Of a DNA stretch of 64,000 bases, positions 42,707 to 58,823 are shown piece by piece. This DNA is from Escherichia coli. Its GTDB lineage: Bacteria; Pseudomonadota; Gammaproteobacteria; Enterobacterales; Enterobacteriaceae. The first letter of the stretch is position 1. Each line of letters begins with the position of its first letter. Position numbers and translations under genes: made by a program. Below the pieces are notes generated by a model. That model did no database searches, had not been told where the DNA came from, and saw only the letters and a program-made list of their open reading frames with translations. Location of the stretch: the NCBI GenBank assembly GCA_020819635.1, contig GCA_020819635.1_4533.1; one strand, 5' to 3'.

Positions 42707-44250
42707 GACAATCTCCTCTCATCGTTAGCCATCTTTCATGGCAATCATCAATCACCAACATCATACGATCAATCTTAGGGAATTACAATCGAATTATCAT
42801 AGGGGATTCCTATCAATTATCCCATATATACCGATTATTTTTGACACCCCACTCTTGTATAAAAAGTAACCCAAAATATCTACGGGGAGAGATTATTTCG
42901 ACACACCCTGTTTCATGGCAATCGTGGCAAGAATATCTAATAGAATCAATATCATATGGCAATAATCATGGCGTATACGTAAGAAGTGCTTAACGCGAAT
43001 TTTCGGGCCGTCAGGTCCACGCAGCGACAATTCCCAAATATCATGAGAATGAGAATAATTATCATTCGTATTCAATGACTTATGCAAGGCTCATGCCAAC
43101 ATAGCGACAAGGTGGGCCACTTGATTATAAATCACACAAACACTTATTTATCAATGGTTTGGCAACTTCATCATATGACGGAACAATGTCAACCGATCCT
43201 GCTCATGACAAGCAGACTATTATTTATATGAGAATGATTATTATTTAAACGTTTATTAACATAAAAGCCAAAATAAATCAAGAATTTTCTGATTTTATTT
43301 ACGTTTAAGAGAACGTGCTCAACATATCGCTACGCGATAGTATTCGCCCCCAAAAGATTAGCCTTTATTTTCTTATATGTTTATACACTATGTGCACACT
43401 ATGCAACCTGTCGCTATTCGCTCATGTTGCTACGTGCAATTATTCATCTTGCTAATGATTTCATCTTGTAATTACCACAATGATTATTGTTATTGCGCTA
43501 ATGTTATGATCTTGGTAATTACATATAATGCTAATAATAAGCCAGCGCAATAAGTGTAAGCGTCATTACGCTTGCAATTATTGCAAGCTACGCAGTAACA
43601 AGAAATAACCGTCACCGATGGTTATGATTGTTGGGGTGTAGTTGGCTTATTATTAGCTCGCTATGTGTCCGGCATAGCGTGCTAATGATGACTCTATGAA
43701 TGATTCGTTTTGTAATGATTTCATTCAGGCACTATTATGGCAATAGTTATTATTTTAATGGTTTCGTTTGTTATTGTTCGTTAGTTGGTTGTTTTGTCGT
43801 GTTATCGTTATCCTGCTTAGTATTCATCATGGTTTGATTGTTTGTCGTTATCAATCATCTTGCTACTATTCCTTTGATTATGATTAGTTTGCTTATTGTT
43901 TTACGTTGTTTGTTGGTTAGTTGTTGCGAACTATTATCAACATTATAGTTATGCGCTTATATTGCATAGATAATCATGGATAGATGATAATGGTTATCAT
44001 TGCACTAGAAAGGAGGTAAAAGGGTGTTTTTGATGGTTTGTTGTTGGTTGTTGATCGATTTTAACCGCTCTAAATAGCTCTCTAACAGTTTGTTACCCTG
44101 GGAGGTATGGTTATTCGTTTAATGGTTGATTAGCTCGATACCGCGATTTATTCAGTTTTGTTCTGTGTCGGTTTTTCATAGGCGAAAGCTATCAACATTA
44201 TTCGGGCAAAAAGAAAGGGCGCTTGATGCGCCCCCTTATTTTGTTGTCGA
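42707..44250. other. non-coding AT-rich island with short palindromes and strand-skewed GT-rich tract
   Basis: no ORF of 60 aa or more over about 1.2 kb; palindromes TTGCAATTATTGCAA, CGCTATG...CATAGCG; three copies of the AGAAT(C/G)A..TCAT motif also found at 55.7 kb. Confidence 0.5.
44214..44245 (-). terminator. intrinsic terminator
   Basis: minus strand GGGCGC-atcaa-GCGCCC followed by TTTCTTTTT. Confidence 0.55.
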
Positions 44251-46492: not shown

Positions 46493-46510
46493 TTTATTTT
46501 CCTCATTATC

Positions 46511-46567
46511 GGCGGCACCATTGCCGCCCTACGTGGTAAATATTATCACACTGGCGATCCGTGTCAA
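46511..46567 (-). promoter_or_regulatory. promoter plus stem-loop cassette (PeSL-like)
   Basis: minus strand TTGACA, 16-nt spacer, TAATAT, then GGCGGCA-ATGG-TGCCGCC. Confidence 0.6.
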
Positions 46568-46573
46568 TACTTT

Positions 46574-46960
46574 TTATTCAATATAAATCAAATTATCTTC
46601 ACCAATGTAAGCCGACACGTTCGGCATAAACTTAGCTGCATTGGTTAAGCGGTTGGCTGTGTTAGTGGTGTATATTTCAGGGCGATCCCAAAATCCTACG
46701 CCGTGACCGTTACGGGTAAAATGTAAATCATTCCCGATTTGGTTGGCTGTAGCGCCGTCGCTCATTGCCTCAGAGATAGCGGCAAGATTAGCATTAATAA
46801 AGGCTGTTACATCCTGGGCGATCCGTTGATGGGCTTGATCTGAAAAATCATAATCAGTCATGTCATCTATAAAATTACCTTTGTGATCCCTGGCTGATTC
46901 AGCAAAAATAAAGGCTTCTTTGTAGCCGTTGATGATTTCAATAATGATTTCTGTTTTCAT
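46574..46960 (-). CDS. hypothetical protein
   Basis: 128-aa ORF. Confidence 0.5.
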   Translation of the reverse strand: MKTEIIIEIINGYKEAFIFAESARDHKGNFIDDMTDYDFSDQAHQRIAQDVTAFINANLAAISEAMSDGATANQIGNDLHFTRNGHGVGFWDRPEIYTTNTANRLTNAAKFMPNVSAYIGEDNLIYIE

Positions 46961-47181
46961 GCTGTACGCTCGACAATAATAATAGTTTGCGGGATCTCGT
47001 TTTCTACTACTAACAAGGCTTTTTTCTGCGTAATAGATATTTTAACACGTTGTAACGTGGCGGTAAAGTCTTTCATCTCATTATGCGCGGATTTAGTGCA
47101 ATGCCATATTTCAGGTTTACCAATTTGCAAGCCGCGTAAAAATTCTGTTTTACCTGTCTTATTCGTGATCATTTGATTCAC
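46957..47181 (-). CDS. hypothetical protein
   Basis: 74-aa ORF. Confidence 0.4.
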   Translation of the reverse strand: MNQMITNKTGKTEFLRGLQIGKPEIWHCTKSAHNEMKDFTATLQRVKISITQKKALLVVENEIPQTIIIVERTA

Positions 47182-47307
47182 CTTAACCGATACCGTGGGA
47201 AGATAGGATCATGTTAGCCATAGTTGCAACCACTCCAACCGATAACGCCAGGCCCACTATTACAACCGTGAAAATTTTCTCTAACATGATTCTACCCTCA
47301 TTAATGG

Positions 47308-47350
47308 GCGTTGCCTTATTGCCCCGCCCTATTGACGGCGGGGAATACTC
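47308..47350 (-). promoter_or_regulatory. tandem GC-rich stem-loops (hairpin-only copy)
   Basis: GGGCG...CCGCCC and GGCGGGG...CCCCGCC; coordinates approximate. Confidence 0.35.
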
Positions 47351-47365
47351 CCCCCGCCTCATTAA

Positions 47366-47572
47366 TTATTCTTCATCGTCGCCGTTATAGTATTCAATGC
47401 CGTTTTCATCGGTTACAGTGATGTTAACGCCACCGATAGCAACACGATCACGGGCAAACGTCATAGCTTCATTTAAATCTTCAGACCAAAAAATATTGTG
47501 ACCTTTGCGCGATACATAAAACATAGTCGGGATCATGATTTGTTTCTCTTCTGTTGTGAGCGGCTGGACCAT
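47366..47572 (-). CDS. hypothetical protein
   Basis: 68-aa ORF; start uncertain (ATG lies inside the cassette hairpin). Confidence 0.4.
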   Translation of the reverse strand: MVQPLTTEEKQIMIPTMFYVSRKGHNIFWSEDLNEAMTFARDRVAIGGVNITVTDENGIEYYNGDDEE

Positions 47573-47622
47573 TCCGCCGCTCTATGTAATAAACTTTACT
47601 ACGTTGTTTGCCTACTGTCAAA
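47559..47622 (-). promoter_or_regulatory. promoter plus stem-loop cassette (PeSL-like)
   Basis: TTGACA, 17-nt spacer, TAAAGT, then GAGCGGC...GCCGCTC. Confidence 0.5.
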
Positions 47623-47907
47623 TTATTTTTTAATGTTTTGCCCTACAAAATTGATCACTTCCTTAAGCTGTCTCTCTGTCATGATCGTACCTGGTAATTC
47701 TTCTTTTATTTCTTCCGGTAAATAGATATTACCGCGCCAGGTTAACAAACAACCGTTTTGATCTTCGCAGATAGAATAAGAAAACATCCATTCGCAATCA
47801 TTTTCAAGCTCCCAAAAACACAAAAAGTCTTCTTTCCCTAAGTTTTCAACGGTTAAACATAATCCGCGACGTGCTGCATAATTAGTTAGGCTTTTTGTGA
47901 TTTTCAT
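47623..47907 (-). CDS. hypothetical protein
   Basis: start set at MKITKSL; ORF-table extension translates the hairpin. Confidence 0.45.
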   Translation of the reverse strand: MKITKSLTNYAARRGLCLTVENLGKEDFLCFWELENDCEWMFSYSICEDQNGCLLTWRGNIYLPEEIKEELPGTIMTERQLKEVINFVGQNIKK

Positions 47908-47928
47908 GATTTTTCTCTCTTCTTGTGA

Positions 47929-47985
47929 GCGGCACCATTGCCGCCCTACAAGATACATATTACCAGACTACGCGGACTTGTCAAA
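47929..47985 (-). promoter_or_regulatory. promoter plus stem-loop cassette (PeSL-like)
   Basis: TTGACA, 16-nt spacer, TAATAT, then GCGGCA-ATGG-TGCCGC. Confidence 0.6.
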
Positions 47986-48105
47986 CTATTTTTTCTTTTT
48001 CTTTGCTTCCAACCGTCTAAGGTTACGGCTTGACTTATTGCGCAAGGCGCTTAGATCATCATACCCTTTCCAGGCTTGCATGTCTTTCGGATTCATGTTA
48101 TCCCC

Positions 48106-48384
48106 TTAACGGTTGTAAATATTGTGGATAGTGATAAAGGCGCTACGGTCATAAGCTGCCAAATCAGGATTGATCCAAGTGTTATCTAACAGTGTTTCAA
48201 GGATAATCGAATCATCATGAATAGCATCATAAAAATCGGGGCTAACAATAGTGTCAATATCATTTTCCGTTAATTCTGCATTCAGCTTGCAAACCGCTTG
48301 CAAATCTGCTTCACGCTTCCAATCTTGCAGATTAGTAGTCAGCACTTGTTCGATTTCTTCGGTGGATAATTTGGTGATGGTCAT
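48106..48384 (-). CDS. hypothetical protein
   Basis: 92-aa ORF. Confidence 0.5.
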   Translation of the reverse strand: MTITKLSTEEIEQVLTTNLQDWKREADLQAVCKLNAELTENDIDTIVSPDFYDAIHDDSIILETLLDNTWINPDLAAYDRSAFITIHNIYNR

Positions 48385-48403
48385 GATTCTATCTCTCTGT
48401 TAG

Positions 48404-48460
48404 GCGGGGCGCTTGTCGCCCCTATGTGATACATCTTATCAGGTTGATTCAGCTTGTCAA
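48404..48460 (-). promoter_or_regulatory. promoter plus stem-loop cassette (PeSL-like)
   Basis: TTGACA, 16-nt spacer, TAAGAT, then GGGGCG-acaag-CGCCCC. Confidence 0.6.
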
Positions 48461-48461
48461 G

Positions 48462-48662
48462 TTATTTGTTAGCCGGATTATATGCCAGGATCGCGCCACT
48501 TGCTTTCACGCTTTCCGTTTCATAGCTGCGCAAGTTGTCTTCTGTAAGATTGAGCGCGATCACTTCCTCGATCTCAACGTCAGCGGCAAGGGCGATCTCT
48601 TTGATAATGTCTGTTGTTTTCATAGTATGTACCTTATAAGATGATTGATAAGATAGTGACAA
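48462..48662 (-). CDS. hypothetical protein
   Basis: 66-aa ORF. Confidence 0.45.
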   Translation of the reverse strand: MSLSYQSSYKVHTMKTTDIIKEIALAADVEIEEVIALNLTEDNLRSYETESVKASGAILAYNPANK

Positions 48663-48777
48663 CGAAAGCGATTATACTGATGGCAAATGTCATCTTTTTA
48701 CCTTCGGATACTGCCGGATTTTCTACCGTGTATTCTACTGTGTACTTGCTCATCGTGTAATCCTCTCGTTTGCTTTG

Positions 48778-48833
48778 GGAACTATTCCCGCCGCCTTATG
48801 AATTAAATATACACTATCTCAAAATTATTGCAA
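48778..48833 (-). promoter_or_regulatory. promoter plus stem-loop cassette (PeSL-like)
   Basis: TTGCAA, 16-nt spacer, TATATT, then GGGAA-tag-TTCCC. Confidence 0.5.
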
Positions 48834-48848
48834 GCCTTTTCTAAATTT

Positions 48849-49133
48849 TTATGCAGTAAACAAACCATCATTTACAACGGCGGCGATGATCTCCCGTGCC
48901 ATTGATTCAGGGAAAGGGGCGCTATAGTCCTGGCTTGTCTCGTCGGTATCAGTGATCCAATGATAAGCTAACGAGTAAAAGCCTTTACTAACTGTTTTCA
49001 GTGAGATGATGATCACTCGGTCAAGCTTATTGGTGAATGTTGCCGTTAATGTGTTACCCTCCTGCGTCATGTTGGACAAGTAAGCGGGATCATTAATCAG
49101 GGAAAACATTAGCACGGTGTTAGCTTTACTCAT
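48849..49133 (-). CDS. hypothetical protein
   Basis: start set at MSKANTV. Confidence 0.45.
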   Translation of the reverse strand: MSKANTVLMFSLINDPAYLSNMTQEGNTLTATFTNKLDRVIIISLKTVSKGFYSLAYHWITDTDETSQDYSAPFPESMAREIIAAVVNDGLFTA

Positions 49134-49149
49134 GATTGCATCCTCAAAT

Positions 49150-49168
49150 GGGCGCGGCACCATTGCCG
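49150..49168 (-). promoter_or_regulatory. 5'-UTR stem-loop with weak upstream promoter
   Basis: GGCGGCA-ATGG-TGCCGCGCC; -35 not canonical. Confidence 0.4.
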
Positions 49169-49204
49169 CCCTACACGATAACTATAACACAATGTAAAAC
49201 AGGA

Positions 49205-49411
49205 TCAACCTTTATTTTTCCACGGTGTCAGTTTGTTAATCATTGGTGATAAATAACGTTTACCAACGTAAAACAGCACGCCAACTGATGCAACGGCGGC
49301 GATCTCATGCATAGCCGACGGGAAACGGGTATCATAATAAGATCCAATAATAGCAATAGCGGCAACGGCTGCAACGTCGATAATGATTTTTTCTTGTTTT
49401 GCGGTGATCAT
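49205..49411 (-). CDS. small membrane protein
   Basis: 68 aa, hydrophobic AAVAAIAIIGSY segment. Confidence 0.45.
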   Translation of the reverse strand: MITAKQEKIIIDVAAVAAIAIIGSYYDTRFPSAMHEIAAVASVGVLFYVGKRYLSPMINKLTPWKNKG

Positions 49412-49433
49412 AATATTTACCTTTTTGTATGGT

Positions 49434-49490
49434 GGGGAACTATTCCCCGCCTGATGTAATACAGTTTAACAGGTCCGGTTATGGTGTCAA
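49434..49490 (-). promoter_or_regulatory. promoter plus stem-loop cassette (PeSL-like)
   Basis: TTGACA, 16-nt spacer, TAAACT, then GGGGAA-tag-TTCCCC. Confidence 0.6.
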
Positions 49491-49496
49491 CCACTT

Positions 49497-49682
49497 TTAA
49501 AGATATTTTATACTGATAACGTTTTCCGGTTTAACCTTGTTGTGATGTGCATCAACATAGATCAAACCATCGTCAGAAAAGCCCAGGATCACGCCCTGCG
49601 CAATAAAACCGTATTCGTCACGGTAACGCACGGCTATTTTTAATGTTGCGTTGTAGGCTGTTTTAAGCTCGTTTAAAGTCAT
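49497..49682 (-). CDS. hypothetical protein
   Basis: 61-aa ORF. Confidence 0.4.
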   Translation of the reverse strand: MTLNELKTAYNATLKIAVRYRDEYGFIAQGVILGFSDDGLIYVDAHHNKVKPENVISIKYL

Positions 49683-49702
49683 TTTTGTTTATCCTCTACA
49701 TG

Positions 49703-49735
49703 TAAAAAGAAAGGGCGCTAGATGCGCCCTTGTTA
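49703..49735 (-). terminator. intrinsic terminator
   Basis: GGGCGC-atcta-GCGCCC hairpin with flanking T-run. Confidence 0.5.
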
Positions 49736-49902
49736 TGTTAATCCTCTAAATCCATCCAATTATATTTGTCACTCTTCCCGCGCTTTGTTTTATTGCGCTT
49801 GTCGCCTTTGCGGATCACTTCCTCATTCCAGGCCTTGCGGATCTTGGAAGATTGAATTTTTTCTGCGCGATTAGATGTATTCATTTTGTTTCCTCTTTAT
49901 AT

Positions 49903-49957
49903 GAGCGGCACCATTGCCGCTATATTATTAATTTAAACTGTTTTGTAAAATTGTCAA
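49903..49957 (-). promoter_or_regulatory. promoter plus stem-loop cassette (PeSL-like), compressed
   Basis: TTGACA, 16-nt spacer, TAAATT, hairpin GCGGCA-ATGG-TGCCGC. Confidence 0.5.
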
Positions 49958-49963
49958 GGTTTA

Positions 49964-50317
49964 TCATTCATAAGAGCAAGCAAGGATCACGCCTGCAATA
50001 TAAAGCCAATAATTTTCCCTTTCTCGTTGGATTTTATCATCGCTGCTATTCTCTTTAATGTATCCCCAGGATGTTAACAAGCGATCCACTTCCCAATATT
50101 CGAAAGCGATATTAATGTCTGATGGCAAACCTTGTAACCATGATGCAAGTGCTTTAACAATACTATAATTAAAACGTGATTGGTTATCAGGGTACCAGTA
50201 TTCGGAATTAAAACGGCGCATCAATTCCGCGATCTTCTCTTTTTCGGTTGTAATACCATAATCATTAAAATCGATAGCGGCAAGGATGTACTCTTTAATT
50301 GCATTTTGTGCTTTCAT
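49964..50317 (-). CDS. hypothetical protein
   Basis: 117-aa ORF. Confidence 0.5.
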   Translation of the reverse strand: MKAQNAIKEYILAAIDFNDYGITTEKEKIAELMRRFNSEYWYPDNQSRFNYSIVKALASWLQGLPSDINIAFEYWEVDRLLTSWGYIKENSSDDKIQRERENYWLYIAGVILACSYE

Positions 50318-50336
50318 GGTCTTTCTCTCTTTTTTA

Positions 50337-50393
50337 GCGGGAACTCTTCCCGCCCTATGTGTAACAGTTTACTGAAAATTAAATCTGTGTCAA
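50337..50393 (-). promoter_or_regulatory. promoter plus stem-loop cassette (PeSL-like)
   Basis: TTGACA, 16-nt spacer, TAAACT, then GCGGGAA-gag-TTCCCGC. Confidence 0.6.
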
Positions 50394-50396
50394 GTT

Positions 50397-50618
50397 TTAT
50401 TTTGTTACTACCATTTGGTACCCTGTTTCAATGTTGCTAAACACTGTTATCCCGTCCTGGCGTTCACTCATTAGCATACAAGGCGCTAACATCCTTTCTA
50501 CTGCCTTGCACTCGTTGTAAACGGCGGTTATATCTCCTGCTGCCTTGTCTTCTGTAGTAAATGTCTCATTTACGTAAACTTGACCAGCGACAACGGCGAC
50601 AATAGCAAAAGTGATCAT
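50397..50618 (-). CDS. hypothetical protein
   Basis: 73-aa ORF. Confidence 0.45.
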   Translation of the reverse strand: MITFAIVAVVAGQVYVNETFTTEDKAAGDITAVYNECKAVERMLAPCMLMSERQDGITVFSNIETGYQMVVTK

Positions 50619-50691
50619 GATGTTTTTCTCTTTATGTGTTTCGATTAGTTGATATTACAGCAATTCACAGATTAGTTTTTAGCAATTCGTG

Positions 50692-50910
50692 CTATTTACT
50701 CATAACAGTATCGAAAACAAATTTTTCTTTGTTGTCAAAGCTCACGTATCCGATTCGACCACGCAAGCCGCGAGTAGTGCCGTATTCGTAACCGTCAAGA
50801 CCTTTAACCTTCCAATCCACGCCCATTAAAACCGCATTATATTTCTGACCAACTACAAACGCGCCACCAGTTGATTCAATGCAAACAACTTTAATTTTAC
50901 GGATTGCCAT
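50692..50910 (-). CDS. hypothetical protein
   Basis: 72-aa ORF. Confidence 0.45.
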   Translation of the reverse strand: MAIRKIKVVCIESTGGAFVVGQKYNAVLMGVDWKVKGLDGYEYGTTRGLRGRIGYVSFDNKEKFVFDTVMSK

Positions 50911-50950
50911 TTTCTTTCTCTCTTTCTGGTGATTGGTTTCTCTTCTCTAT

Positions 50951-50985
50951 AGCGCCCATTATAAGGCGCTATAACGAAAAGTCAA
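50951..50985 (-). promoter_or_regulatory. sigma70-like promoter with -10 inside a palindrome
   Basis: TTGACT, 16-nt spacer, TATAAT; the -10 sits in the loop of TATAGCGCC...GGCGCTATA. Confidence 0.55.
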
Positions 50986-51178
50986 CGATTATTTTTAAGG
51001 CTTAAAGTACCTAACTTGTCAGCATGACGCAGACCAGGGAAGATCCATTTTCCTGATTCATCTTTTACAGGGGCTTTAAGCGTAGCGCCTAGGTTGGCGG
51101 CGTTAACTTTACGTGCAACGTTGCGAGCGGCTTCACGGGTAGCGAAAGTGATCATGGTGTTTTCCTCTTCTCTTTGTT

Positions 51179-51241
51179 AGGCGGTGGACCATTCCGCCGC
51201 CTTGATGTAATACAGTTTACTTTATTTTTGCAGTATTGCAA
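51179..51241 (-). promoter_or_regulatory. promoter plus stem-loop cassette (PeSL-like)
   Basis: TTGCAA, 16-nt spacer, TAAACT, then GGCGGCGG...CCACCGCC. Confidence 0.55.
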
Positions 51242-51247
51242 GCGGTT

Positions 51248-51460
51248 TTATGAAATAATCGTCAAAGTAAAATTGTAATCACCTGATTGATATAATACTT
51301 TATCACCGAACGTTCCAACACGTTTAACATTGCAATATATACCCATAACACTTTTTACATCTTTGATATTCTTCACGCCTGTAATGTCTTTATTGAAATA
51401 CTCGTCATCTGAAAATAAAACTTGACTTGCATTTTTTAACAGTGTGCGGATATTAGCCAT
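51248..51460 (-). CDS. hypothetical protein
   Basis: 70-aa ORF. Confidence 0.45.
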   Translation of the reverse strand: MANIRTLLKNASQVLFSDDEYFNKDITGVKNIKDVKSVMGIYCNVKRVGTFGDKVLYQSGDYNFTLTIIS

Positions 51461-51483
51461 CGTAATAATCTCTCTTCTGTTGT

Positions 51484-51541
51484 GAGCGGCACCATTGCCG
51501 CCCTATGTAATACAGTTTACTCTTTTTCTTTCCGGTGTCAA
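51484..51541 (-). promoter_or_regulatory. promoter plus stem-loop cassette (PeSL-like)
   Basis: TTGACA, 16-nt spacer, TAAACT, then GCGGCA-ATGG-TGCCGC. Confidence 0.6.
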
Positions 51542-51550
51542 CAATCTTTT

Positions 51551-51778
51551 TCAGATCAATTCATCCAGGCATAACAGGCGATCAACGTTGAGATCGGTTA
51601 GGCTGATGGTTGGCACCTGGTAGGATTCGATGTACTCGACGCTTGCATATTCCCCAAAATTAGCAATAGCCCACTTATTCAAGATCTCACATACATCATT
51701 AATCTTTTTGTTTGTTACAACTGCAATAACCTGGGAAGTGCCAACGGTGCCGGATACGCGAACAATATTGATAGCCAT
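51551..51778 (-). CDS. hypothetical protein
   Basis: 75-aa ORF. Confidence 0.45.
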   Translation of the reverse strand: MAINIVRVSGTVGTSQVIAVVTNKKINDVCEILNKWAIANFGEYASVEYIESYQVPTISLTDLNVDRLLCLDELI

Positions 51779-51799
51779 AATCTTTAATCTCTCTGTTGT

Positions 51800-51859
51800 T
51801 GGCGGGAAACCACTTCCCGCCCTATGTGATACATCTTACACTAATTTTAAACGTTGTCA
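51800..51859 (-). promoter_or_regulatory. promoter plus stem-loop cassette (PeSL-like)
   Basis: TTGACA, 16-nt spacer, TAAGAT, then GCGGGAA-gtggt-TTCCCGC; near-identical to the copy at 54746. Confidence 0.6.
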
Positions 51860-51869
51860 ACTGTTTTTA

Positions 51870-52109
51870 TTACATTCCAACCATTGCAGCACGGATCGCC
51901 GTAGTGCTATACTTGAATCCGTCCGGCGTTGTAGTAGTACCGTTGGCTTTTAATCTGCGGTACATACATTCCGCAGCAATATCTTTAGTTCTACTTTGTG
52001 CGATGCAACTTTGAGCAAGCCGATACAATGACTCACCGTTATTAATCCATAAGGAAACATTCCAATGAGTTTTGTTTTTGTGACCTAAGAACATTTTAGA
52101 TTTAGCCAT
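51870..52109 (-). CDS. hypothetical protein
   Basis: 79-aa ORF. Confidence 0.45.
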   Translation of the reverse strand: MAKSKMFLGHKNKTHWNVSLWINNGESLYRLAQSCIAQSRTKDIAAECMYRRLKANGTTTTPDGFKYSTTAIRAAMVGM

Positions 52110-52132
52110 GATTTTTCTCTCTTTTTCAGTGA

Positions 52133-52192
52133 GGCGGGAAGTGTTCCCGCTCTCTATGTAATACAGTTTACTCTTTTTATTGGTGCTGTCAA
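52133..52192 (-). promoter_or_regulatory. promoter plus stem-loop cassette (PeSL-like)
   Basis: TTGACA, 16-nt spacer, TAAACT, then GCGGGAA-cac-TTCCCGC. Confidence 0.6.
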
Positions 52193-52198
52193 TGCTTT

Positions 52199-52564
52199 TT
52201 ATAAATCTTTTTTACGTTTAACATCGCTCGCATGACTGTATACAGTGATCCCATTGTCACGGCAAAAACGGGAAAGATACGCGCCGCGTGAAAACTCTTT
52301 ACCTTCCATATTAATAACCTTGCTAAACTCTTCCAGGGCGACGGTATCAAAATGATCACCATAGCCATATTGAAACGGAACGTTAACCACCTCGATCAGT
52401 TTACCGCCGATCTCAACGTCAACCATTAAAGAAAAATATGTGTTACCGTAGGACTGTTGAAACCAGCGACGGGCGCTAATATGCACCGCCTCAATGCTGG
52501 ATAATTCAATTTTAGCCGTGTTAGCCAGGGTAGCATAAGCGGAAACATTGATATTAATAGCCAT
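52199..52564 (-). CDS. hypothetical protein
   Basis: 121-aa ORF. Confidence 0.5.
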   Translation of the reverse strand: MAININVSAYATLANTAKIELSSIEAVHISARRWFQQSYGNTYFSLMVDVEIGGKLIEVVNVPFQYGYGDHFDTVALEEFSKVINMEGKEFSRGAYLSRFCRDNGITVYSHASDVKRKKDL

Positions 52565-52590
52565 GGTGTCACTCTCTCTTTTTGGTTAGT

Positions 52591-52642
52591 GGGAAGTATT
52601 CCCGATAAAAGTTATTATGCTTATACTATCACTCATTGTCAA
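52591..52642 (-). promoter_or_regulatory. promoter plus stem-loop cassette (PeSL-like)
   Basis: TTGACA then CATAAT/TAATAA -10 region, hairpin GGGAA-tac-TTCCC. Confidence 0.5.
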
Positions 52643-52870
52643 TAGTATAAGACTAAAACTTTTAACGATAATCGTTATAGGCTTTATTGACCTGGCGAAT
52701 GTAACATTCGAAAGCAAGATCAATGTATTCGTATTCACGCACATAATCACCATAGGTCACTACATACATTTTTAAAGTTTCCTCATAAGCCAGGAGGATC
52801 GAATCTAAACCTATAATCTCAGTTTTTGCAATGATAGCCATGATGTTAACCTTTTATTGTTGGCGGCACC

Positions 52871-52927
52871 ATTGCCGCCCTACGTGATAAACTATACCAG
52901 AAGTTTAAACAGTGTCAACCGTTTTTA
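52871..52927 (-). promoter_or_regulatory. promoter plus stem-loop cassette (PeSL-like)
   Basis: TTGACA, 16-nt spacer, TATAGT, then GGCGGCA-ATGG-TGCCGCC. Confidence 0.6.
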
Positions 52928-53287
52928 TTCGTAAATTTTACCGCTTTCGGCCCATACCATAACGCGGCGCATACTATCCCAAGTGTTTTGATCCAGGTTT
53001 AAGCCGTGCAACTCTTCGGTACTTCCCAGACCAGGTACCGCCTTGTTATAAGTTGCATATAAGCGCCCTTGATACTCATACGCTAGGGTGAGATCCGTTT
53101 GAATCATCTTTTTAAGCATAGCATTAAGCATCGTGTTAGCGGCATATTGATCACGTTTTAGCGGTAACATGTCAATAAGGGCGCGATAAGCTGAAACATG
53201 AATATCAACCGTTTCACGTGGTAAATTTTTCATATCGTCGCGGAAAGATACCAGATTAAACATGATAGTATTGATTTGCTTGCTCAT
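52925..53287 (-). CDS. hypothetical protein
   Basis: 120-aa ORF. Confidence 0.5.
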   Translation of the reverse strand: MSKQINTIMFNLVSFRDDMKNLPRETVDIHVSAYRALIDMLPLKRDQYAANTMLNAMLKKMIQTDLTLAYEYQGRLYATYNKAVPGLGSTEELHGLNLDQNTWDSMRRVMVWAESGKIYE

Positions 53288-53308
53288 TGTGTTACCCTTT
53301 TTTGTTTT

Positions 53309-53369
53309 GGCGGGGAAGTATTCCGCCGCCCTATGTGATACATCTTATCAGATTAAAAAACGTTGTCAA
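53309..53369 (-). promoter_or_regulatory. promoter plus stem-loop cassette (PeSL-like)
   Basis: TTGACA, 16-nt spacer, TAAGAT, then GGCGGCGGAA-tac-TTCCCCGCC. Confidence 0.6.
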
Positions 53370-53501
53370 GAATATTTTTTAGAAAATAATAGCCGCTACT
53401 ACAACCCAAAATGGAACGGCGAAAATGATAGCGTTAATCGTTCCAACCGTCAAGCTATTTTCTTTATTAATCATTGTAAACCTCTTGCATAATTTCACTA
53501 T

Positions 53502-53560
53502 GAGCGGCACCATTGCCGCCCTACGTGGTAAATATTATGCCAGTGGCGGCGATATGTCAA
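53502..53560 (-). promoter_or_regulatory. promoter plus stem-loop cassette (PeSL-like)
   Basis: TTGACA, 17-nt spacer, TAATAT, then GGCGGCA-ATGG-TGCCGC. Confidence 0.6.
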
Positions 53561-54123
53561 AGACTATTTTCAAAGTTTTCTAGTGCGATCCTTTTTTCTT
53601 CCTCTGTCGGCTGATAATCAGGAAAAGCATCAACACACAACAACGGCGGGATCTCTTCGTACTCTTCCTCTTCCGTTGTCTCCTCGTCTTCCTCCTGGGC
53701 TATGGCTGCAATTTTGGCTAATTTTCTTTCAGCTTGAATCAATTTACCATCAAGTACGTTTTTTGCCATGTTGTAAGCGGTCCAGGTGATGCGCTTACTT
53801 TCCAATGCTTCATCAAGCGCCGCTATCTTGCTGGGGTATTCATCCAGGACACGAAAAGCCGGATCAATTTTGTACAAAGGATTATCTTTCGCGCCGTCGC
53901 TCGCATCTTCCGCACTGGATAAATCAGCGTTACCATTTGCCAGCCAACCAGGGCGCACATAACGCGCTTTTACGTTGCCGTTACTACGTGCTAATCTGTT
54001 ACCTATTTGCTCACCGCTATATCCCGTGGATTCATCGATAAGATGATCGGGAATGATGCGCGGATCATCTGCTTCATGTTTTACCCAAGACTGGATCACA
54101 TATTCGCGGCCCATATTAACCAC
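53557..54123 (-). CDS. hypothetical protein with acidic C-terminal region
   Basis: 188-aa ORF; start uncertain. Confidence 0.5.
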   Translation of the reverse strand: MVNMGREYVIQSWVKHEADDPRIIPDHLIDESTGYSGEQIGNRLARSNGNVKARYVRPGWLANGNADLSSAEDASDGAKDNPLYKIDPAFRVLDEYPSKIAALDEALESKRITWTAYNMAKNVLDGKLIQAERKLAKIAAIAQEEDEETTEEEEYEEIPPLLCVDAFPDYQPTEEEKRIALENFENSL

Positions 54124-54373
54124 CTTTTTTCAACAATTGGCATACTTTAAAAAGACTTGCTGAATCCTTGCAAGGGTAGAAAGATGTACGATAATCACGT
54201 ACGCCAACCTTGCGGATCTCGATGTTTTCGCATGTTGTTTGATCAAAGATATTTATTTCATCACGCCCCCTTATATAAACATAGTGGGGATGTATTAACG
54301 CATATTTTGCTAATCTGTAAAAAGCGTTATCTTTGAACGCGATCACGTGACCTTTTAATTTGATGTAAAACAT
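54116..54373 (-). CDS. hypothetical protein
   Basis: 85-aa ORF. Confidence 0.45.
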   Translation of the reverse strand: MFYIKLKGHVIAFKDNAFYRLAKYALIHPHYVYIRGRDEINIFDQTTCENIEIRKVGVRDYRTSFYPCKDSASLFKVCQLLKKGG

Positions 54374-54390
54374 TCTACCACCTTACAAAT

Positions 54391-54446
54391 AGCGGGAACT
54401 ATTCCCGCTTTATGTAACATATTAACAAATTATTCGTTAATGTCAA
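54391..54446 (-). promoter_or_regulatory. promoter plus stem-loop cassette (PeSL-like)
   Basis: TTGACA, 16-nt spacer, TAATAT, then GCGGGAA-tag-TTCCCGC. Confidence 0.6.
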
Positions 54447-54449
54447 GCC

Positions 54450-54722
54450 TTAAAGCAAAAACGCTACATCTTGCGCTTTTAGTGTAGTATCAACCATTTT
54501 TGGGCTTTTATAATCAACAAAGCGCGCGGTTTTTTCAATAGCGAAACCGAGATAATCTTGTTTATTGAATTTACATTCTTTCTTAAATGTTTCCCGCGCC
54601 ACGGTGATCGCTGCGTCCAGGGATAAACGCCCGTCAATGTTGATGTTAGCGAAAGATCCGCCACCGCTCATAGGTTTACCAGTTGTGCCAGCTACGATCA
54701 TTGTTGCGCTATATGATGCCAT
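54450..54722 (-). CDS. hypothetical protein
   Basis: 90-aa ORF. Confidence 0.45.
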   Translation of the reverse strand: MASYSATMIVAGTTGKPMSGGGSFANINIDGRLSLDAAITVARETFKKECKFNKQDYLGFAIEKTARFVDYKSPKMVDTTLKAQDVAFLL

Positions 54723-54745
54723 GATGATAATCTCTCTTCTGTTAC

Positions 54746-54806
54746 GAGCGGGAAACCACTTCCCGCCCTATGTGATACATCTTATCAGGTTGTTGTTTGT
54801 TGTCAA
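54746..54806 (-). promoter_or_regulatory. promoter plus stem-loop cassette (PeSL-like)
   Basis: TTGACA, 16-nt spacer, TAAGAT, then GCGGGAA-gtggt-TTCCCGC. Confidence 0.6.
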
Positions 54807-54812
54807 TAGTTT

Positions 54813-55012
54813 TTATTCTATTCCTGCGATTTGATTAACGCGCTTGCATTTTGTAGCGTGCTGGTCTTCTGTAATGACTCCCATTTCTAACAGGGAATCA
54901 ATGAAAGATAAAACCGTTTCATGATCATCCTGGGGGTGACTGAACTCAGTAAAACCGTTTACCACTACGTTGATTTGTCCAGCTTTCGCCACAATGTGCA
55001 ATGTTGCCATGA
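54813..55012 (-). CDS. hypothetical protein
   Basis: start set at MATLHIVAK; ORF-table extension (LVGRQWCRS) translates the hairpin. Confidence 0.45.
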
Positions 55013-55028
55013 TCTTAACTCCAAATAG

Positions 55029-55088
55029 TGAGCGGCACCATTGCCGCCCTACAAGATGAATACTACGCCGCCGCCTGGTTAACGTCAA
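55029..55088 (-). promoter_or_regulatory. promoter plus stem-loop cassette (PeSL-like), first of array
   Basis: TTGACG, 17-nt spacer, TAGTAT, then GGCGGCA-ATGG-TGCCGC. Confidence 0.55.
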
Positions 55089-55196
55089 CCATTTTTCAAT
55101 CTTTTTTATTTTCTTTTTGCTTGCTATATATAAAGAAAAGGGCTATTATCTTTCTACCGCGCCAACCAGGGCGCACAACAAAGAAAGGGCGATATC

Positions 55197-55463
55197 ATGA
55201 CAAATACTACATTACACCTTATGCACTCATTGGGCTGGCAAGGCGGCACGGTGCACCAGGTAGCAAGCGCAACGGGCTTAAAGGTTGAAACCGTTCTCAA
55301 CCTGGGCGATCATAAGGTGGAAGAGATAGATCATTTTGATACGTTCGCAAATGGTTATCTATGGGCTTGCAGTGGCGGCGGGGAAAGCAAGATACCACCA
55401 GGGGCGCGGGGCGATATGTATTTTTGGTTAGGTGTCCTATCCTGGCAAGAAAACAAAAAATAA
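55197..55463 (+). CDS. hypothetical protein (isolated plus-strand ORF)
   Basis: 88-aa ORF with AAGGG RBS; GC-richer than surroundings; reality uncertain. Confidence 0.3.
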   Translation: MTNTTLHLMHSLGWQGGTVHQVASATGLKVETVLNLGDHKVEEIDHFDTFANGYLWACSGGGESKIPPGARGDMYFWLGVLSWQENKK

Positions 55464-55465
55464 TC

Positions 55466-55494
55466 TTGACAAGCCCAGGGATCGGGCTTATACT
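55466..55494 (+). promoter_or_regulatory. strong sigma70-like promoter
   Basis: TTGACA, 17-nt spacer (itself an AGCCC...GGGCT inverted repeat), TATACT. Confidence 0.5.
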
Positions 55495-55499
55495 GTTTT

Positions 55500-55700
55500 A
55501 CATACAGAAGAGGAAGCGCCACCCCACGGCGTAAAGGCGGGGCTAACATACCAGGGGGCACTGGTTGGAAGGTTGATCGCCGGTAGGCTGGGTGCTATAT
55601 ATTTGTAAAGAAATGTAAAGATAAAATAATCGCTTGCTTTCCTGGCTGGATCTGTTATTCTTATTACATGGCGAGGGGACACGGGAGCGCGAGACAAACA
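55500..55700 (+). ncRNA. candidate small non-coding RNA, GC-rich and structured
   Basis: directly downstream of a consensus promoter; no plausible ORF; locally GC-rich in an AT-rich genome; only Pro/Arg-rich antisense ORFs. Confidence 0.2.
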
Positions 55701-55722
55701 CCGCCCCTGCGCGTCATTCTCT

Positions 55723-55838
55723 AAATGAGAATGATTGTCATTTACCTTATTAAATAAGAATCAATCTCATTTATAAACTTAAATGCGAATCATTATCATT
55801 TGCATTTCCATATGAGAACTCTTCTCATTTTCACCTGC
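55723..55838. repeat. four tandem 29-bp repeats with palindromic core (operator or iteron-like)
   Basis: copies start at 55723, 55752, 55781 and 55810 (exact 29-bp period); core aAATGaGAATnaTtnTCATTT with inverted-repeat symmetry. Confidence 0.6.
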
Positions 55839-55851
55839 ATAAAAATTTTTG

Positions 55852-55910
55852 TAAACTTTAAATTTTGCTTTTGTACTTTCATTTTTGTAAAAGCAAAAAA
55901 ACTTTAAATA
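55852..55910. repeat. AT-rich direct repeat, copy A (about 58 bp)
   Basis: TAAACTTTAAATTTTGCTTTTGTACTTTCATTTTTGTAAA...ACTTTAAATA; about 85% identical to copy B. Confidence 0.5.
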
Positions 55911-55989
55911 CTGTGGGCGCGCAAAATTTTTAAAATTTTCCTTGACTTTTGAGTTTTGTTTTGTATCTAACATTTTAAGATAATTTTCC

Positions 55990-56047
55990 TAAACTTTAAA
56001 TTTTGGTTTTCAACTTTCACTTTTGTAAATTCTTAAAAAGTTTAAAT
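55990..56047. repeat. AT-rich direct repeat, copy B
   Basis: TAAACTTTAAATTTTGGTTTTCAACTTTCACTTTTGTAAA...GTTTAAATA, 138 bp downstream of copy A. Confidence 0.5.
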
Positions 56048-56177
56048 AATTTGAGGGATTTTTGAGATAAAAGATAGTGGGAATTTGATATAACCTTTAA
56101 TCTTATTGGTAAACCTTCAGGAACCCACTCAGATCGAATCCTAGTGATGCAAACTGAAAAAGACAAGGGTTTGTATA

Positions 56178-56216
56178 GGACAAAATAACAGGCTCTCTAC
56201 GGTGCTGTAGGAGCCT
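56178..56216 (-). terminator. intrinsic terminator of the minus-strand operon
   Basis: minus strand AGGCTCCTACAGCACCGTAGAGAGCCT hairpin followed by GTTATTTTGT. Confidence 0.5.
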
Positions 56217-56271
56217 TATTTCTGTGCTACAAAGTGACACCTTTGTTCTAAAAATGAAAAAAGTTAAAATA

Positions 56272-56814
56272 TCACAAATATCGTCTTTGCGGTATTTTGT
56301 CTGGGAAAAGTATTTCGATCAGTTTATTATGATATTTGCCTAAAAGATTCTGCCCTTTCCAGGTAGCAGGGTTTAGCACCCCTGGTTCATACATTCCCAT
56401 TCCAATACCGTAAACCTTATCGTAAGGACTTGCTTCAACAAACGTTTTGTATTGGTAAAGGTGTAAATCTGCATACAAATCTGGATTCTGTACATATTTC
56501 AAGCATAAGCCTCGCATAACAATACGCTCACGGTTCTCTTCCCACATATCATTATTAAAACCAGATACCGCTCGACCCATACGTTTGTAGTATGCTTGTT
56601 TCCTCTCGTTGTCACGTATAGTTGAGTGATCAAGGATAGCTGCTGCAATCGCATGATCCTTGAACAGCAAAGCCTTACGCCACATCATATATTGCTCAAC
56701 ACAACAGAAAGTCTCATTGTAACCTGGTTCAGTTTCTGTAAAGGGTGCAATATACCAATTACTAAACACATCTTTATGTGAAAAGAAGAATACATATTCA
56801 TCAGTTATTCTCAT
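56272..56814 (-). CDS. NADAR-domain protein (YbiA-like)
   Basis: VFFFSHKDVFSNWY and VEQYMMWRKA match NADAR family hallmarks. Confidence 0.75.
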   Translation of the reverse strand: MRITDEYVFFFSHKDVFSNWYIAPFTETEPGYNETFCCVEQYMMWRKALLFKDHAIAAAILDHSTIRDNERKQAYYKRMGRAVSGFNNDMWEENRERIVMRGLCLKYVQNPDLYADLHLYQYKTFVEASPYDKVYGIGMGMYEPGVLNPATWKGQNLLGKYHNKLIEILFPDKIPQRRYL

Positions 56815-57026
56815 TTTTTCATGCCTTCTAAAACTTTAGCTTGCCCGTCTTGAAAAGCTTTCATCAGAACTATCTTAAGATTGACTTCCAAACGTTCTTC
56901 ATCCTCTCTATAACAATCCAACACTGCTTTAAGTTCATCATAGTGGTTCAGAATAGGTTTAAAGATTTCATGATCTGCTAAACGTGCCATAGTTTCTCCT
57001 TTGTTAGTCCATCCACCAGTAGCCAT
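56811..57026 (-). CDS. hypothetical protein
   Basis: 71-aa ORF. Confidence 0.4.
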   Translation of the reverse strand: MATGGWTNKGETMARLADHEIFKPILNHYDELKAVLDCYREDEERLEVNLKIVLMKAFQDGQAKVLEGMKK

Positions 57027-57369
57027 AAACTGCGTCTGCGTCGATGAGTTTGTGTTTGTTGTTCCGCATGTAGTCTAAGATAAGTAGACGTTTATTGTAT
57101 CTGGAGAGATTATGACCCTCTTTTCCGCCATAGTCAAAATATTTTGCAAGATCTTTACACTCAAACAAAATCAGTTCGGGAGTTTCTTCACACTGGTCTG
57201 TCTGGTACACTTGACGAATGATCATGTATACATCGTCGTCTTCCGCTAAATGCTCTACTGGTCCACATCCAGCAGGAACAAATTCATAGTCCCATCTGAT
57301 CAGATGTTTCTCTACTGCTTCAAAGAAGTCCATTCTTTCGTTGCGCATAATTTGAACGTCAACTAACAT
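57004..57369 (-). CDS. hypothetical protein
   Basis: 121-aa ORF. Confidence 0.45.
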   Translation of the reverse strand: MLVDVQIMRNERMDFFEAVEKHLIRWDYEFVPAGCGPVEHLAEDDDVYMIIRQVYQTDQCEETPELILFECKDLAKYFDYGGKEGHNLSRYNKRLLILDYMRNNKHKLIDADAVYGYWWMD

Positions 57370-58823
57370 GTTTCCTCCTCTCTCATTATTCCACCTGCTT
57401 GGTTGATAGCACTTAAGACGATAGCCAAATCCTCGCGCAGGAAGGTTTCACTATGACCATCTTTCATGTGCAAGCGTTCTACACAGCCAATAGACGGTAG
57501 AATCTGATCAGTCTTAGACTTTAGCTTACTCTCTAACGCCCTGCAAGCTTGGTAGGACGGCAGATCGAACAATGCTATACGGCGCATAGAGTAATTGTTG
57601 TTTGCATTCTGCCCTTTGATCCTGATATCACTGTCCTTTGCAATCCCCAACTTGTAAGCTCCCGTGTCTTCTCCGTACTCATCAAGAATAATATTGATGT
57701 AAAATTCTTGCATATTTCTGTTCTTACAGCCTGGACAACCTTTCCCATTGAGATAATCGGTAGGTGTGATCGTTTGCTCTCCATGCTCCCTACATAGATA
57801 TTTAAACTTGCTGTTATTGCTTACCTTATCAATGAATCCTATAAATTGATCCCCTCGTTCCTGGCAAGCTTTGGTCATACGGTAGGCCCATTGTTCAGGA
57901 GTGTAATGATAATATTTAGAACAACGGCAAGGAAGGCCACCCCTTTTCAAATGACTCATCTTCATCTCAAATTTATTATCGCATAAGCCTTCTTTACAAT
58001 AATCATCCTCTGCACATATAGGACATTCTACAATCCAGTAAACCTGACGACCTAATCTATCTACTCTATCGCTACGATAATATTTACGCTCTACATTATC
58101 AGGACAAGCTTTTATAAAATCTTCAACATGTTGTTTATCCTCCATTGTATTCCTTTGTTTCGTCATTTCTCTTTGACAACTGTAGCATCCAGTCCCTTGT
58201 TTAGCACTGTTTACAGTGGTAGTGCACCATTGACCATGAACCTTACACTCACAAATCAACTTAGTGCGGGAACCGTTCCACGGTTCCACATAGCCTCTAA
58301 CAATCCAGGGTTTTTCTTTATAAGCTTCTTCTACTTCTTCTTTATGTTTCTCCCATGCAATCGATGTTCTTTCTCTGTTTGCTTCTCCCATACACTTCCT
58401 GCATCCACTCCCGTTTTTCGCAGAAGATATAGAAGTAGACCTCCACTCCCCATGTAAAGCACAACAACAAACCAGTTTAGTATTCCATCCTTTCCATTCT
58501 CCGTGCCATCCTGTAACAGTCCAAAACTTACCTGCCTGATTGTAAGTGGTTTGCACTTCTTCTTTATATTGCTCCCAGGTTTTTGATTTGTTTATAGATA
58601 CTGCTTTACTTATAATCTCCCTACCGCATTCTGGACAACCCCTCCCTAGTTTAGCGGTATTTATGCTTGTTGTTTTCCATTCTCCATGCAGAGCACAGAT
58701 GCATCTAAGTTTAGTTTTATTGCCGTTCCACGGCTCAATATAATCTACAACAGTCCAAGACTTACCTTGATAAGCTTGTTTTATATCTGTTTTATATTGT
58801 TCCCAAGTGACTATTTTTGGCAC
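57363..58823 (-). CDS. Cys-rich protein with three tandem zinc-ribbon-like repeats and a possible GIY-YIG/T5orf172-like C-terminal region
   Basis: three ~60-aa repeats W..Y...W...W.G..TKL.C.C..HG.W..T......K.G.GC..C; C-terminal YKLGIAKDSDIRIKGQN; putative homing-endonuclease-like. Confidence 0.4.
   Translation of the reverse strand: MPKIVTWEQYKTDIKQAYQGKSWTVVDYIEPWNGNKTKLRCICALHGEWKTTSINTAKLGRGCPECGREIISKAVSINKSKTWEQYKEEVQTTYNQAGKFWTVTGWHGEWKGWNTKLVCCCALHGEWRSTSISSAKNGSGCRKCMGEANRERTSIAWEKHKEEVEEAYKEKPWIVRGYVEPWNGSRTKLICECKVHGQWCTTTVNSAKQGTGCYSCQREMTKQRNTMEDKQHVEDFIKACPDNVERKYYRSDRVDRLGRQVYWIVECPICAEDDYCKEGLCDNKFEMKMSHLKRGGLPCRCSKYYHYTPEQWAYRMTKACQERGDQFIGFIDKVSNNSKFKYLCREHGEQTITPTDYLNGKGCPGCKNRNMQEFYINIILDEYGEDTGAYKLGIAKDSDIRIKGQNANNNYSMRRIALFDLPSYQACRALESKLKSKTDQILPSIGCVERLHMKDGHSETFLREDLAIVLSAINQAGGIMREEETC

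Follow-up and report, generated by a model that had tools for sequence, protein, structure and literature searches.

The 64,000-nucleotide stretch of DNA analysed here (the window) carries a predicted new phage-restricted RNA family of rV5/phAPEC8-type phages, represented by an element termed RNA1 (55500-55586, core 55517-55581, + strand, delimited by conservation and consensus fold), with a second element, RNA2, as its companion. The family is put forward as new since no transcriptome of these phages and no description of either RNA was found in the literature. In a paper on the Certrevirus CB7, only sigma-70-like early promoters are reported (PMC7344957). The window is DNA of a phAPEC8/ESCO13-like Phapecoctavirus (Stephanstirmvirinae); over positions 54800-56300, blastn identity is 100% to Escherichia phage vB_EcoM_3A1_SA_NWU and 96-99% to ESCO13 and phAPEC8. 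Where the original prediction envisaged one RNA of 150-250 nt, the region holds two tandem promoter–RNA units on the + strand, promoter P1 with RNA1 and then the weaker promoter P2 with RNA2. Both promoters are directed toward four palindromes spaced by 29 bp, an AT-rich repeat array and a bidirectional terminator. In our preferred reading, to which we assign a probability of about 0.45, RNA1 is expressed early, folds, and works by way of its structure, with binding to a conserved protein as the most likely mode of action.

Promoter P1 (TTGACA-17-TATACT, 55466-55494, + strand) comprises a TTGACA hexamer at 55466-55471, a 17-nt spacer (AGCCCAGGGATCGGGCT) at 55472-55488 and a TATACT hexamer at 55489-55494, with an A-rich stretch upstream. 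The near-perfect promoter originally predicted here holds: it agrees with the consensus at 11 of 12 positions and is the top-scoring sigma-70 site in 54000-57500. Sites at 11/12 number 13 in the whole window versus 3.1 expected from block shuffles, and from about 36.8 to 62.5 kb only two + strand sites reach at least 10/12, namely promoter P1 and a 10/12 site at 53363. The -35/-10 pairs upstream of RNA1 in different lineages are TTGACA/TATACT, TTGCAA/TATAGT, TTGACG/TATACT, TTGACA/TATAAT and TTGACA/CATAAT. In every lineage, the RNA1 copies have a sigma-70 -10 hexamer 16-22 nt upstream, accompanied by a -35 hexamer at proper spacing. Since the hexamers persist while the spacer sequences are unrelated, the pattern is that of a functional promoter and the transcribed strand is fixed. 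Judged by its hexamers, spacing and conservation, promoter P1 is a real sigma-70 promoter, and it can be assigned to the TTGACA-type early promoter family of this phage, facing in the opposite direction. More than 20 TTGACA-type sites occur in 44-55 kb, where the small early genes sit, and nearly all of them are on the minus strand.

The inverted repeat said to occupy the spacer is also present (AAGCCC-N7-GGGCTT followed by ATACTGTTTT, 55471-55489, + strand) and is terminator-like by scan. It directly follows the stop codon of an 88-aa ORF (55197-55463, + strand, phrog_19316) and so probably serves as the intrinsic terminator of that ORF's transcript. In phiTE and L013, a different hairpin (GCCCGGC-GAAA/GCAA-GCTGGGC) sits in its place. 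The 88-aa ORF is the sole + strand gene amid minus-strand genes and gave no match in a Pfam search; in relatives, its position is taken by a homologue or by a small + strand ORF unrelated to it. Upstream, a promoter-like site for the 88-aa ORF (TTGCTA-17-TATTAT, 9/12, 55121-55149, + strand) is arranged divergently to the first leftward early promoter, which is found with its conserved 5' hairpin at 55088-55029 on the minus strand. All gene-like ORFs of at least 100 aa between 40 and 64 kb are likewise on the minus strand. Gene order, promoter directions and the position of the first leftward promoter thus mark the locus as a putative rightward, almost wholly non-coding transcription unit that diverges from the early gene cluster.

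RNA1 is the best-conserved DNA of the locus. The 93 nt after promoter P1 match 227 phage records by blastn, and in 223 of these the identity is at least 80% across 80% or more of the length. The matching records include related E. coli, Salmonella and Klebsiella phages and span the Stephanstirmvirinae and Vequintavirinae (Seunavirus, Certrevirus, Mydovirus, Avunavirus). When a 1.17-kb query was used in a distant blastn search, only 55497-55771 aligned in remote relatives (PVP-SE1, GAP31, phiTE, Klebsiella phage KB57, and Pantoea and Cronobacter phages), at 69-77% identity, and the flanking genes did not. An alignment of 18 sequences from different genera leaves 60 of 106 window-sequence positions invariant. 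By covariance model, RNA1 is single copy in the window (113 bits), and the same model finds one match only in 877 kb of unrelated viral contigs, on a contig from a metagenome-assembled genome (L154). Across 185,579 species genomes there is again one match, on a 4-kb metagenome-assembled-genome contig. An origin of RNA1 from the host or a plasmid, or mimicry of a host RNA, was rejected, as blastn against 5,426 E. coli genomes and 72,556 plasmids gave no match. The matches listed from a metagenome scan are chance matches in GC-rich soil contigs, and a viral scan with a loose RNA2 pattern returned mostly noise.

Transcription from promoter P1 would begin at about 55500-55502, in an ACAT context common to other early promoters of the phage, and continue into a purine-rich leader. 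The consensus fold of RNA1 has three helices. Helix P1 pairs CGCC (55517-20) with GGCG (55528-31) around the loop ACCCCAC, and helix P2 pairs GGCGG (55536-40) with UCGCC (55577-81). Helix P3 is a hairpin at 55547-55567 that contains C47-G67, A48-U66 and the pairing of ACCAG (55550-54) with CUGGU (55561-65), and ends in a variable tip. Among 27 distinct sequences, 97.1% of the pair cells are standard, compared with 22-54% when the partners are slid. Changes on both sides of a pair occur in 3 of 16 pairs, all in helix P3; the sequences are related and few, and the count beats both shuffled and slid controls. One helix P3 pair goes from A-U to G-C in 11 of 25 sequences, and phage SSBI34 has GGUaGCG/CGCACC in place of CGuACC/GGUCG. 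The tip of helix P3 occurs in about ten sequences or lengths, nearly all of which are predicted hairpins, the exception by minimum free energy (MFE) being W70.

Helices P1 and P2 are invariant and so lie outside the reach of covariation, and since most of RNA1 is invariant, covariation is confined to few pairs. The divergent b- and c-type copies of RNA1 fit the helix P2 pairing poorly. Folding energy is unexceptional against shuffled sequences (z = -1.32 for the + strand, -0.09 for the minus strand). The + strand pairs better than the other strand (97.1% versus 91.0%) because of G·U pairs. Three near-invariant unpaired segments, the loop ACCCCAC, GCUAAC and GGAAGGU, are conserved as strongly as the stems, which fits recognition by a protein or other macromolecule. 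A covariance check across relatives had been proposed at the outset, and its yield is divided: helix P3 and the outer stem of RNA2 covary, and helices P1 and P2 do not vary. The covariation therefore appears real but thin, being limited to one variable RNA1 hairpin and the RNA2 outer stem. Overall, RNA1 is probably folded, and the original candidate structured small RNA survives as a promoter-driven, non-coding, conserved and probably structured element, with the reservation that few pairs covary and the folding energy is ordinary. No intrinsic terminator was found after RNA1, so RNA1 may be only the 5' part of a longer transcript; both its synthesis and the 3' end given here are what we infer. 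A pseudoknot between the helix P1 loop and a downstream G-run was also considered (CCCC/GGGG in a-type copies, CCAA/UUGG in b- and c-types). The partner segments are not at equivalent positions, so it is not claimed.

Turning to the second unit, promoter P2 (TTGCTT-16-TATTCT, 55634-55661, + strand) agrees with the consensus at 8 of 12 positions in the window, and its position and hexamers are conserved. Its counterparts in relatives, TTGATC/TATTAT and TTGCAA/TATATT, are stronger, and their spacers differ. Between RNA1 and promoter P2 lies the tandem motif TTTGTAAAGAAATGTAAAGA, two copies of TGTAAAGA placed 10 bp apart (55602-55621, + strand), which is conserved in nearly all lineages and may be a UP-like or factor-binding element for promoter P2. 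RNA2 is a predicted hairpin of 50 nt (55668-55717, + strand) that extends from the presumed transcript start and has an outer stem of AUGGCG with CGUCAU. It contains the near-invariant motif GAGACAAACACC at 55691-55702, and likewise the near-invariant GAGACAAnCACC. Its pair cells are paired in 92.5% of cases compared with 29-54% in slid controls and 78.9% on the other strand. Double-sided changes occur in 2 of 9 pairs, among few and related sequences, a count above that of both shuffled and slid controls, and many pairs toggle between G-C and G·U. Elsewhere in the window, sequence complementary to the RNA2 loop occurs no more often than by chance, and RNA1 and RNA2 share no common sequence or fold.

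With two units come two GC-rich blocks, at about 55500-55590 and 55668-55715, and the stretch between them is AT-rich and includes promoter P2. The GC-rich tract of about 200 bp in the original prediction is thus not uniform, although its first part clearly stands out, 55500-55599 having 59% GC and a strong G skew against about 40% GC around it. The expectation that this tract runs into a 29-bp repeat block is borne out by the four palindromes of the form TGAGAAT-N-ATTCTCA that adjoin RNA2 at 55722-55830 with 29-bp spacing.

RNA1, RNA2, palindromes and repeats are always linked, in the same order and orientation, across subfamilies. Within this frame, several variants occur among relatives. 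Erwinia phage Hena1 and a related contig have a c-type RNA1, in which the helix P1 hairpin and the 3' segment are the same and the middle differs. In Raoultella phage Ro1 (L017, 7136-6290, minus strand), an HNH homing endonuclease gene is located exactly at the 3' end of RNA1, after its ...GATCGC, and is followed by a TTGACA promoter of its own and a divergent b-type RNA1. RNA1 of Ro1 lies about 750 bp further from the palindromes, so the spacing between the two is not critical. Pectobacterium phage P7_Pc (L150, 691-984) has retained both RNA1 copies and has lost most of the endonuclease gene. Homing endonucleases typically occupy conserved, functionally important genes, and this one behaves as if RNA1 were such a gene. 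The rV5-type Vequintavirus phage magaca (L019, 1300-1560) is without RNA1 and has two tandem RNA2-type units, each combining a promoter and a palindrome with a GC-rich hairpin that contains GAGACAAnCACC. In Seunavirus, Mydovirus and Certrevirus, a third + strand promoter is found past the palindromes, together with 3-6 repeats of about 70 bp that have A5T6 tracts and GATC-containing TCGATCGAGAAC cores; these were located in PVP-SE1 (L003, 1750-2000), phiTE (L004, 1830-2100) and L147-L149. GenBank records place spurious ORFs over the ~70-bp repeats, for example PVP-SE1 gp202.

In the preferred reading, host sigma-70 RNA polymerase would use promoter P1 as an early promoter, and the first minutes of infection would see the synthesis of RNA1 as a three-helix small non-coding RNA, about 65-90 nt long. 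Promoter P2 would give the RNA2 hairpin as a second tandem unit. Both units would be transcribed rightward, against all neighbouring genes, beside the early gene cluster. RNA1 would then bind a conserved protein partner, of host or phage, and act in trans; a base-pairing antisense role is less likely. The constant linkage of RNA1 to RNA2, palindromes and repeats suits a function of the locus in cis instead, and a Vequintavirus with two RNA2-type units and no RNA1 also counts against the preferred reading. Among known systems, orphan phage structured RNA motifs and phage small RNAs, as in Rfam, are likewise short, GC-rich, promoter-proximal and restricted to a phage group. They also share the variable hairpin flanked by near-invariant unpaired bases and a function that is not evident from context. 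RNA1 differs from them in that no Rfam 15 model matches it even at E = 10, in being transcribed against its neighbours and in being tied to a palindrome/repeat locus.

The region toward which the promoters point suggests the main alternative, possible but somewhat unlikely, namely that the phage has its replication origin, or one of several origins, at this locus, where transcripts from promoters P1 and P2, and from a third promoter (P3) in relatives, open the DNA or stay hybridised to it as primers. In that case, the conservation of RNA1 and RNA2 would reflect control of RNA-DNA hybrid formation by their fold. All promoters are aimed at an ORF-free region of 19-25% GC with direct repeats, which in the window is the array at 55840-56060, with 72-nt repeats 138 bp apart and 34-nt sub-repeats. 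The transcribed strand is G-rich, with a GC skew of +0.18 to +0.35 over 55250-55650 and of +0.2 to +0.35 across RNA1 and RNA2, but just past RNA2 the skew becomes negative. Four palindromes at 29-bp spacing that adjoin an AT-rich block recall the layout of the lambda-type iteron origin, but no initiator gene was recognised near the locus, where the neighbours are a NADAR protein, an endonuclease and an ATPase whose role is not evident. The GATC and A5T6 tracts in the ~70-bp repeats of relatives and the order of elements kept across subfamilies would also suit an origin, whereas no DnaA box (TTATNCACA) occurs within 55100-56300 and RNA1 of Ro1 is displaced by 750 bp from the palindromes. An equally good candidate occupies the opposite end of the early gene cluster, where a second and larger ORF-free AT-rich region of about 1.5 kb (42710-44250) has the same type of palindrome at 43050, 43229, 43925 and 43985; this region could be an origin or a twin control region.

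Transcripts are known to act at origins in the case of ColE1 RNA II and T4 oriF/oriG, and the primary origin of T7 consists of two tandem promoters and an AT-rich region. The locus is like these in having tandem promoters that lead into an AT-rich, ORF-free region and a G-rich transcript with a structured 5' end, the latter as predicted here. It differs from them in lacking sequence homology, a DnaA box and a known initiator gene. Moreover, priming transcripts rarely need near-invariant unpaired nucleotides, and the unpaired bases of RNA1 are conserved far beyond what priming requires.

The Fur box has the consensus GATAATGATAATCATTATC, and the four palindromes match it at 13-15 of 19 positions, a score of at least 13 being attained at 74 of about 128,000 window positions. 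The likeness is suggestive only. The best match to the Fur consensus in the window (16/19) is at 43045, in the second AT-rich region. Beyond the repeats, a bidirectional intrinsic terminator at 56188-56216, annotated as a terminator in the phAPEC8 record, is predicted to end both the rightward non-coding unit and a minus-strand operon that arrives from the right. Within the repeats themselves (55827-56029), four promoter-like sites on the minus strand (TTTACA/TTTAAA-17/18-nAAAAT) are aimed at the palindromes and RNA2, and convergent transcription across the locus is therefore possible.

Palindromes of the same sequence family are found in phage T5 as palE-palJ of Repeat Region 3, in the injection-stop (iss) region of the terminal repeat (Davison, bioRxiv 10.1101/866236). 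Identity by blastn to those at 55722-55830 is 83-87% over 55 nt, with E values down to 9e-9. The same units are present in the T5-like phage chee24 (L021, 1480-1680). In T5-like phages, as here, the palindromes precede a direct-repeat array in a long non-coding region beside early genes. In T5 they adjoin a DnaA box cluster that has been likened to oriC (bioRxiv 10.1101/866236), which would favor an origin. T5-like phages nonetheless differ from the locus in being without RNA1 (as checked in L021) and in having the DnaA boxes that the locus lacks.

Alternatively, the GC-rich blocks may be double-stranded DNA sites for a protein, through their CGCC/GGCG repeats and GAGACAAACACC, with promoters that are incidental or serve another purpose. 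The invariance of helices P1 and P2 leaves room for this idea, since as inverted repeats they could equally be protein-binding palindromes, and the adjoining palindromes and repeats are clearly DNA sites. Against it, the promoter is at a fixed distance and orientation in every lineage and before each divergent copy, pairing in helix P3 is kept despite changes in sequence and length, and the G·U-based pairing advantage of the + strand is not explained by double-stranded DNA. We consider a DNA-site function quite unlikely.

The close association of each element with its promoter, within about 0-20 nt of the inferred start, permits a further alternative, in which RNA1 and RNA2 are leader elements in cis that gate passage of RNA polymerase past the palindromes to the repeats. 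They would do so in the manner of HK022 put or as an attenuator built from alternating ATTCT/AGAAT half-sites. HK022 put RNAs act in cis and prevent termination. Like the two predicted elements here, they are folded, about 65-75 nt long, and located in two copies right after early promoters. The likeness is superficial, as there is no sequence similarity and no downstream gene or long operon, and RNA1 and RNA2 share neither sequence nor fold, unlike putL and putR. For an attenuator, the segment CATTCTC-TAAAT-GAGAATG-ATTGTCATTT permits two mutually exclusive hairpins and is terminator-like by scan, but these hairpins are AU-rich and weak. The minus-strand early promoters are each followed by a conserved 5' hairpin, so promoter-proximal RNA elements are a habit of this phage; on the + strand, however, there is no downstream gene to regulate, and the unit stops at a terminator about 500-700 nt on. 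On balance, a role as a cis leader is very unlikely.

The last alternative is that the region encodes a small protein, as annotated on the minus strand in several GenBank records, and it can practically be dismissed: ORFs of 52-69 aa do overlap the region on both strands and have been annotated (phAPEC8_00257, vBEcoMRo121lw_00257), but their TTG or GTG start codons are not conserved, indels of 1-2 nt break the frames between close relatives, and the annotations are mutually discordant, with ORFs called on different strands and none in most of the 227 records. A single G gained or lost within RNA1 between the window and phAPEC8 is enough to shift the frame, and the length of RNA1 differs by 1, 2, 5 and 6 nt among relatives. 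The region of RNA1 is by these signs non-coding, in line with the earlier statement that it holds no credible ORF.

Several known kinds of element were also considered for RNA1 and rejected. A tRNA or tmRNA was rejected, as ARAGORN reports 0 genes, in agreement with the original remark that no tRNA T-loop signatures were found. A known RNA family such as a riboswitch, ribozyme or CRISPR repeat was rejected after null results at three depths of search in Rfam 15: no match at the gathering score in the whole window, and nothing plausible at E<=10 in either 54000-57500 or 55495-55725. A pseudo-ToxI decoy, as in phiTE, was sought by blastn-short with the 36-nt ToxI repeat and gave chance matches of 10-11 nt, none in the locus. 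Visual inspection shows a resemblance to the E. coli type I-E repeat in CCCC...GCGGGG-CUAAC and in the b-type GGCG-AUAAAC. A CRISPR-repeat mimic is at most a weak lead, as no CRISPR repeat model matches and the stem would have only 4 bp. Finally, a genome terminus or packaging site was rejected, since the number of records that end within 3 kb of the locus, 8 of 227, is about that expected by chance, and two record ends differ in place within the repeats.

A broader and unlikely proposal would make RNA1 and RNA2 the founders of a new class of early phage RNA. Together with the host-factor-type palindromes shared with T5, they would constitute an early module for control or replication origin, common to unrelated virulent enterobacterial phages, in which RNA1 primes or opens an origin, or sequesters a conserved host protein or defence component during takeover. 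Phages of the rV5, phAPEC8, phi92 and PVP-SE1 types are widely isolated and have been proposed for therapy and food safety, and their early regions are almost unannotated. The locus holds the most conserved non-coding sequence of the early region, and nearly all of about 230 GenBank records either leave it without annotation or wrongly place small proteins there. A defined RNA with a defined promoter offers a direct experimental handle on host takeover or the start of replication, and the locus connects to the long-unexplained palindromes of the T5 injection-stop region.

Some further observations concern the surroundings of the locus. Six minus-strand early promoters (46509-55054) are each followed by a near-identical 5' stem-loop, ACAUAGGGCGGCAAUGGUGCCGCUCA, which the phAPEC8 record labels 'PHIRE promoter'; its appearance is that of a conserved 5' RNA hairpin, for stability or as a regulator site, and not of a promoter. 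To the right of the locus, the minus-strand gene at 56272-56814 encodes a NADAR-domain protein, from a family linked to the reversal of DNA ADP-ribosylation, and that at 57363-58823, also on the minus strand, encodes a protein of 486 aa that has CapR-homology domains and shows matches to phage endonuclease families. Together, the two proteins suggest a counter-defence neighbourhood. Near-identical genomes are on record as phages of Campylobacter, Acinetobacter and Pseudomonas, among them Campylobacter phage B15 (96.7% identity), and the host labels of these records look doubtful.
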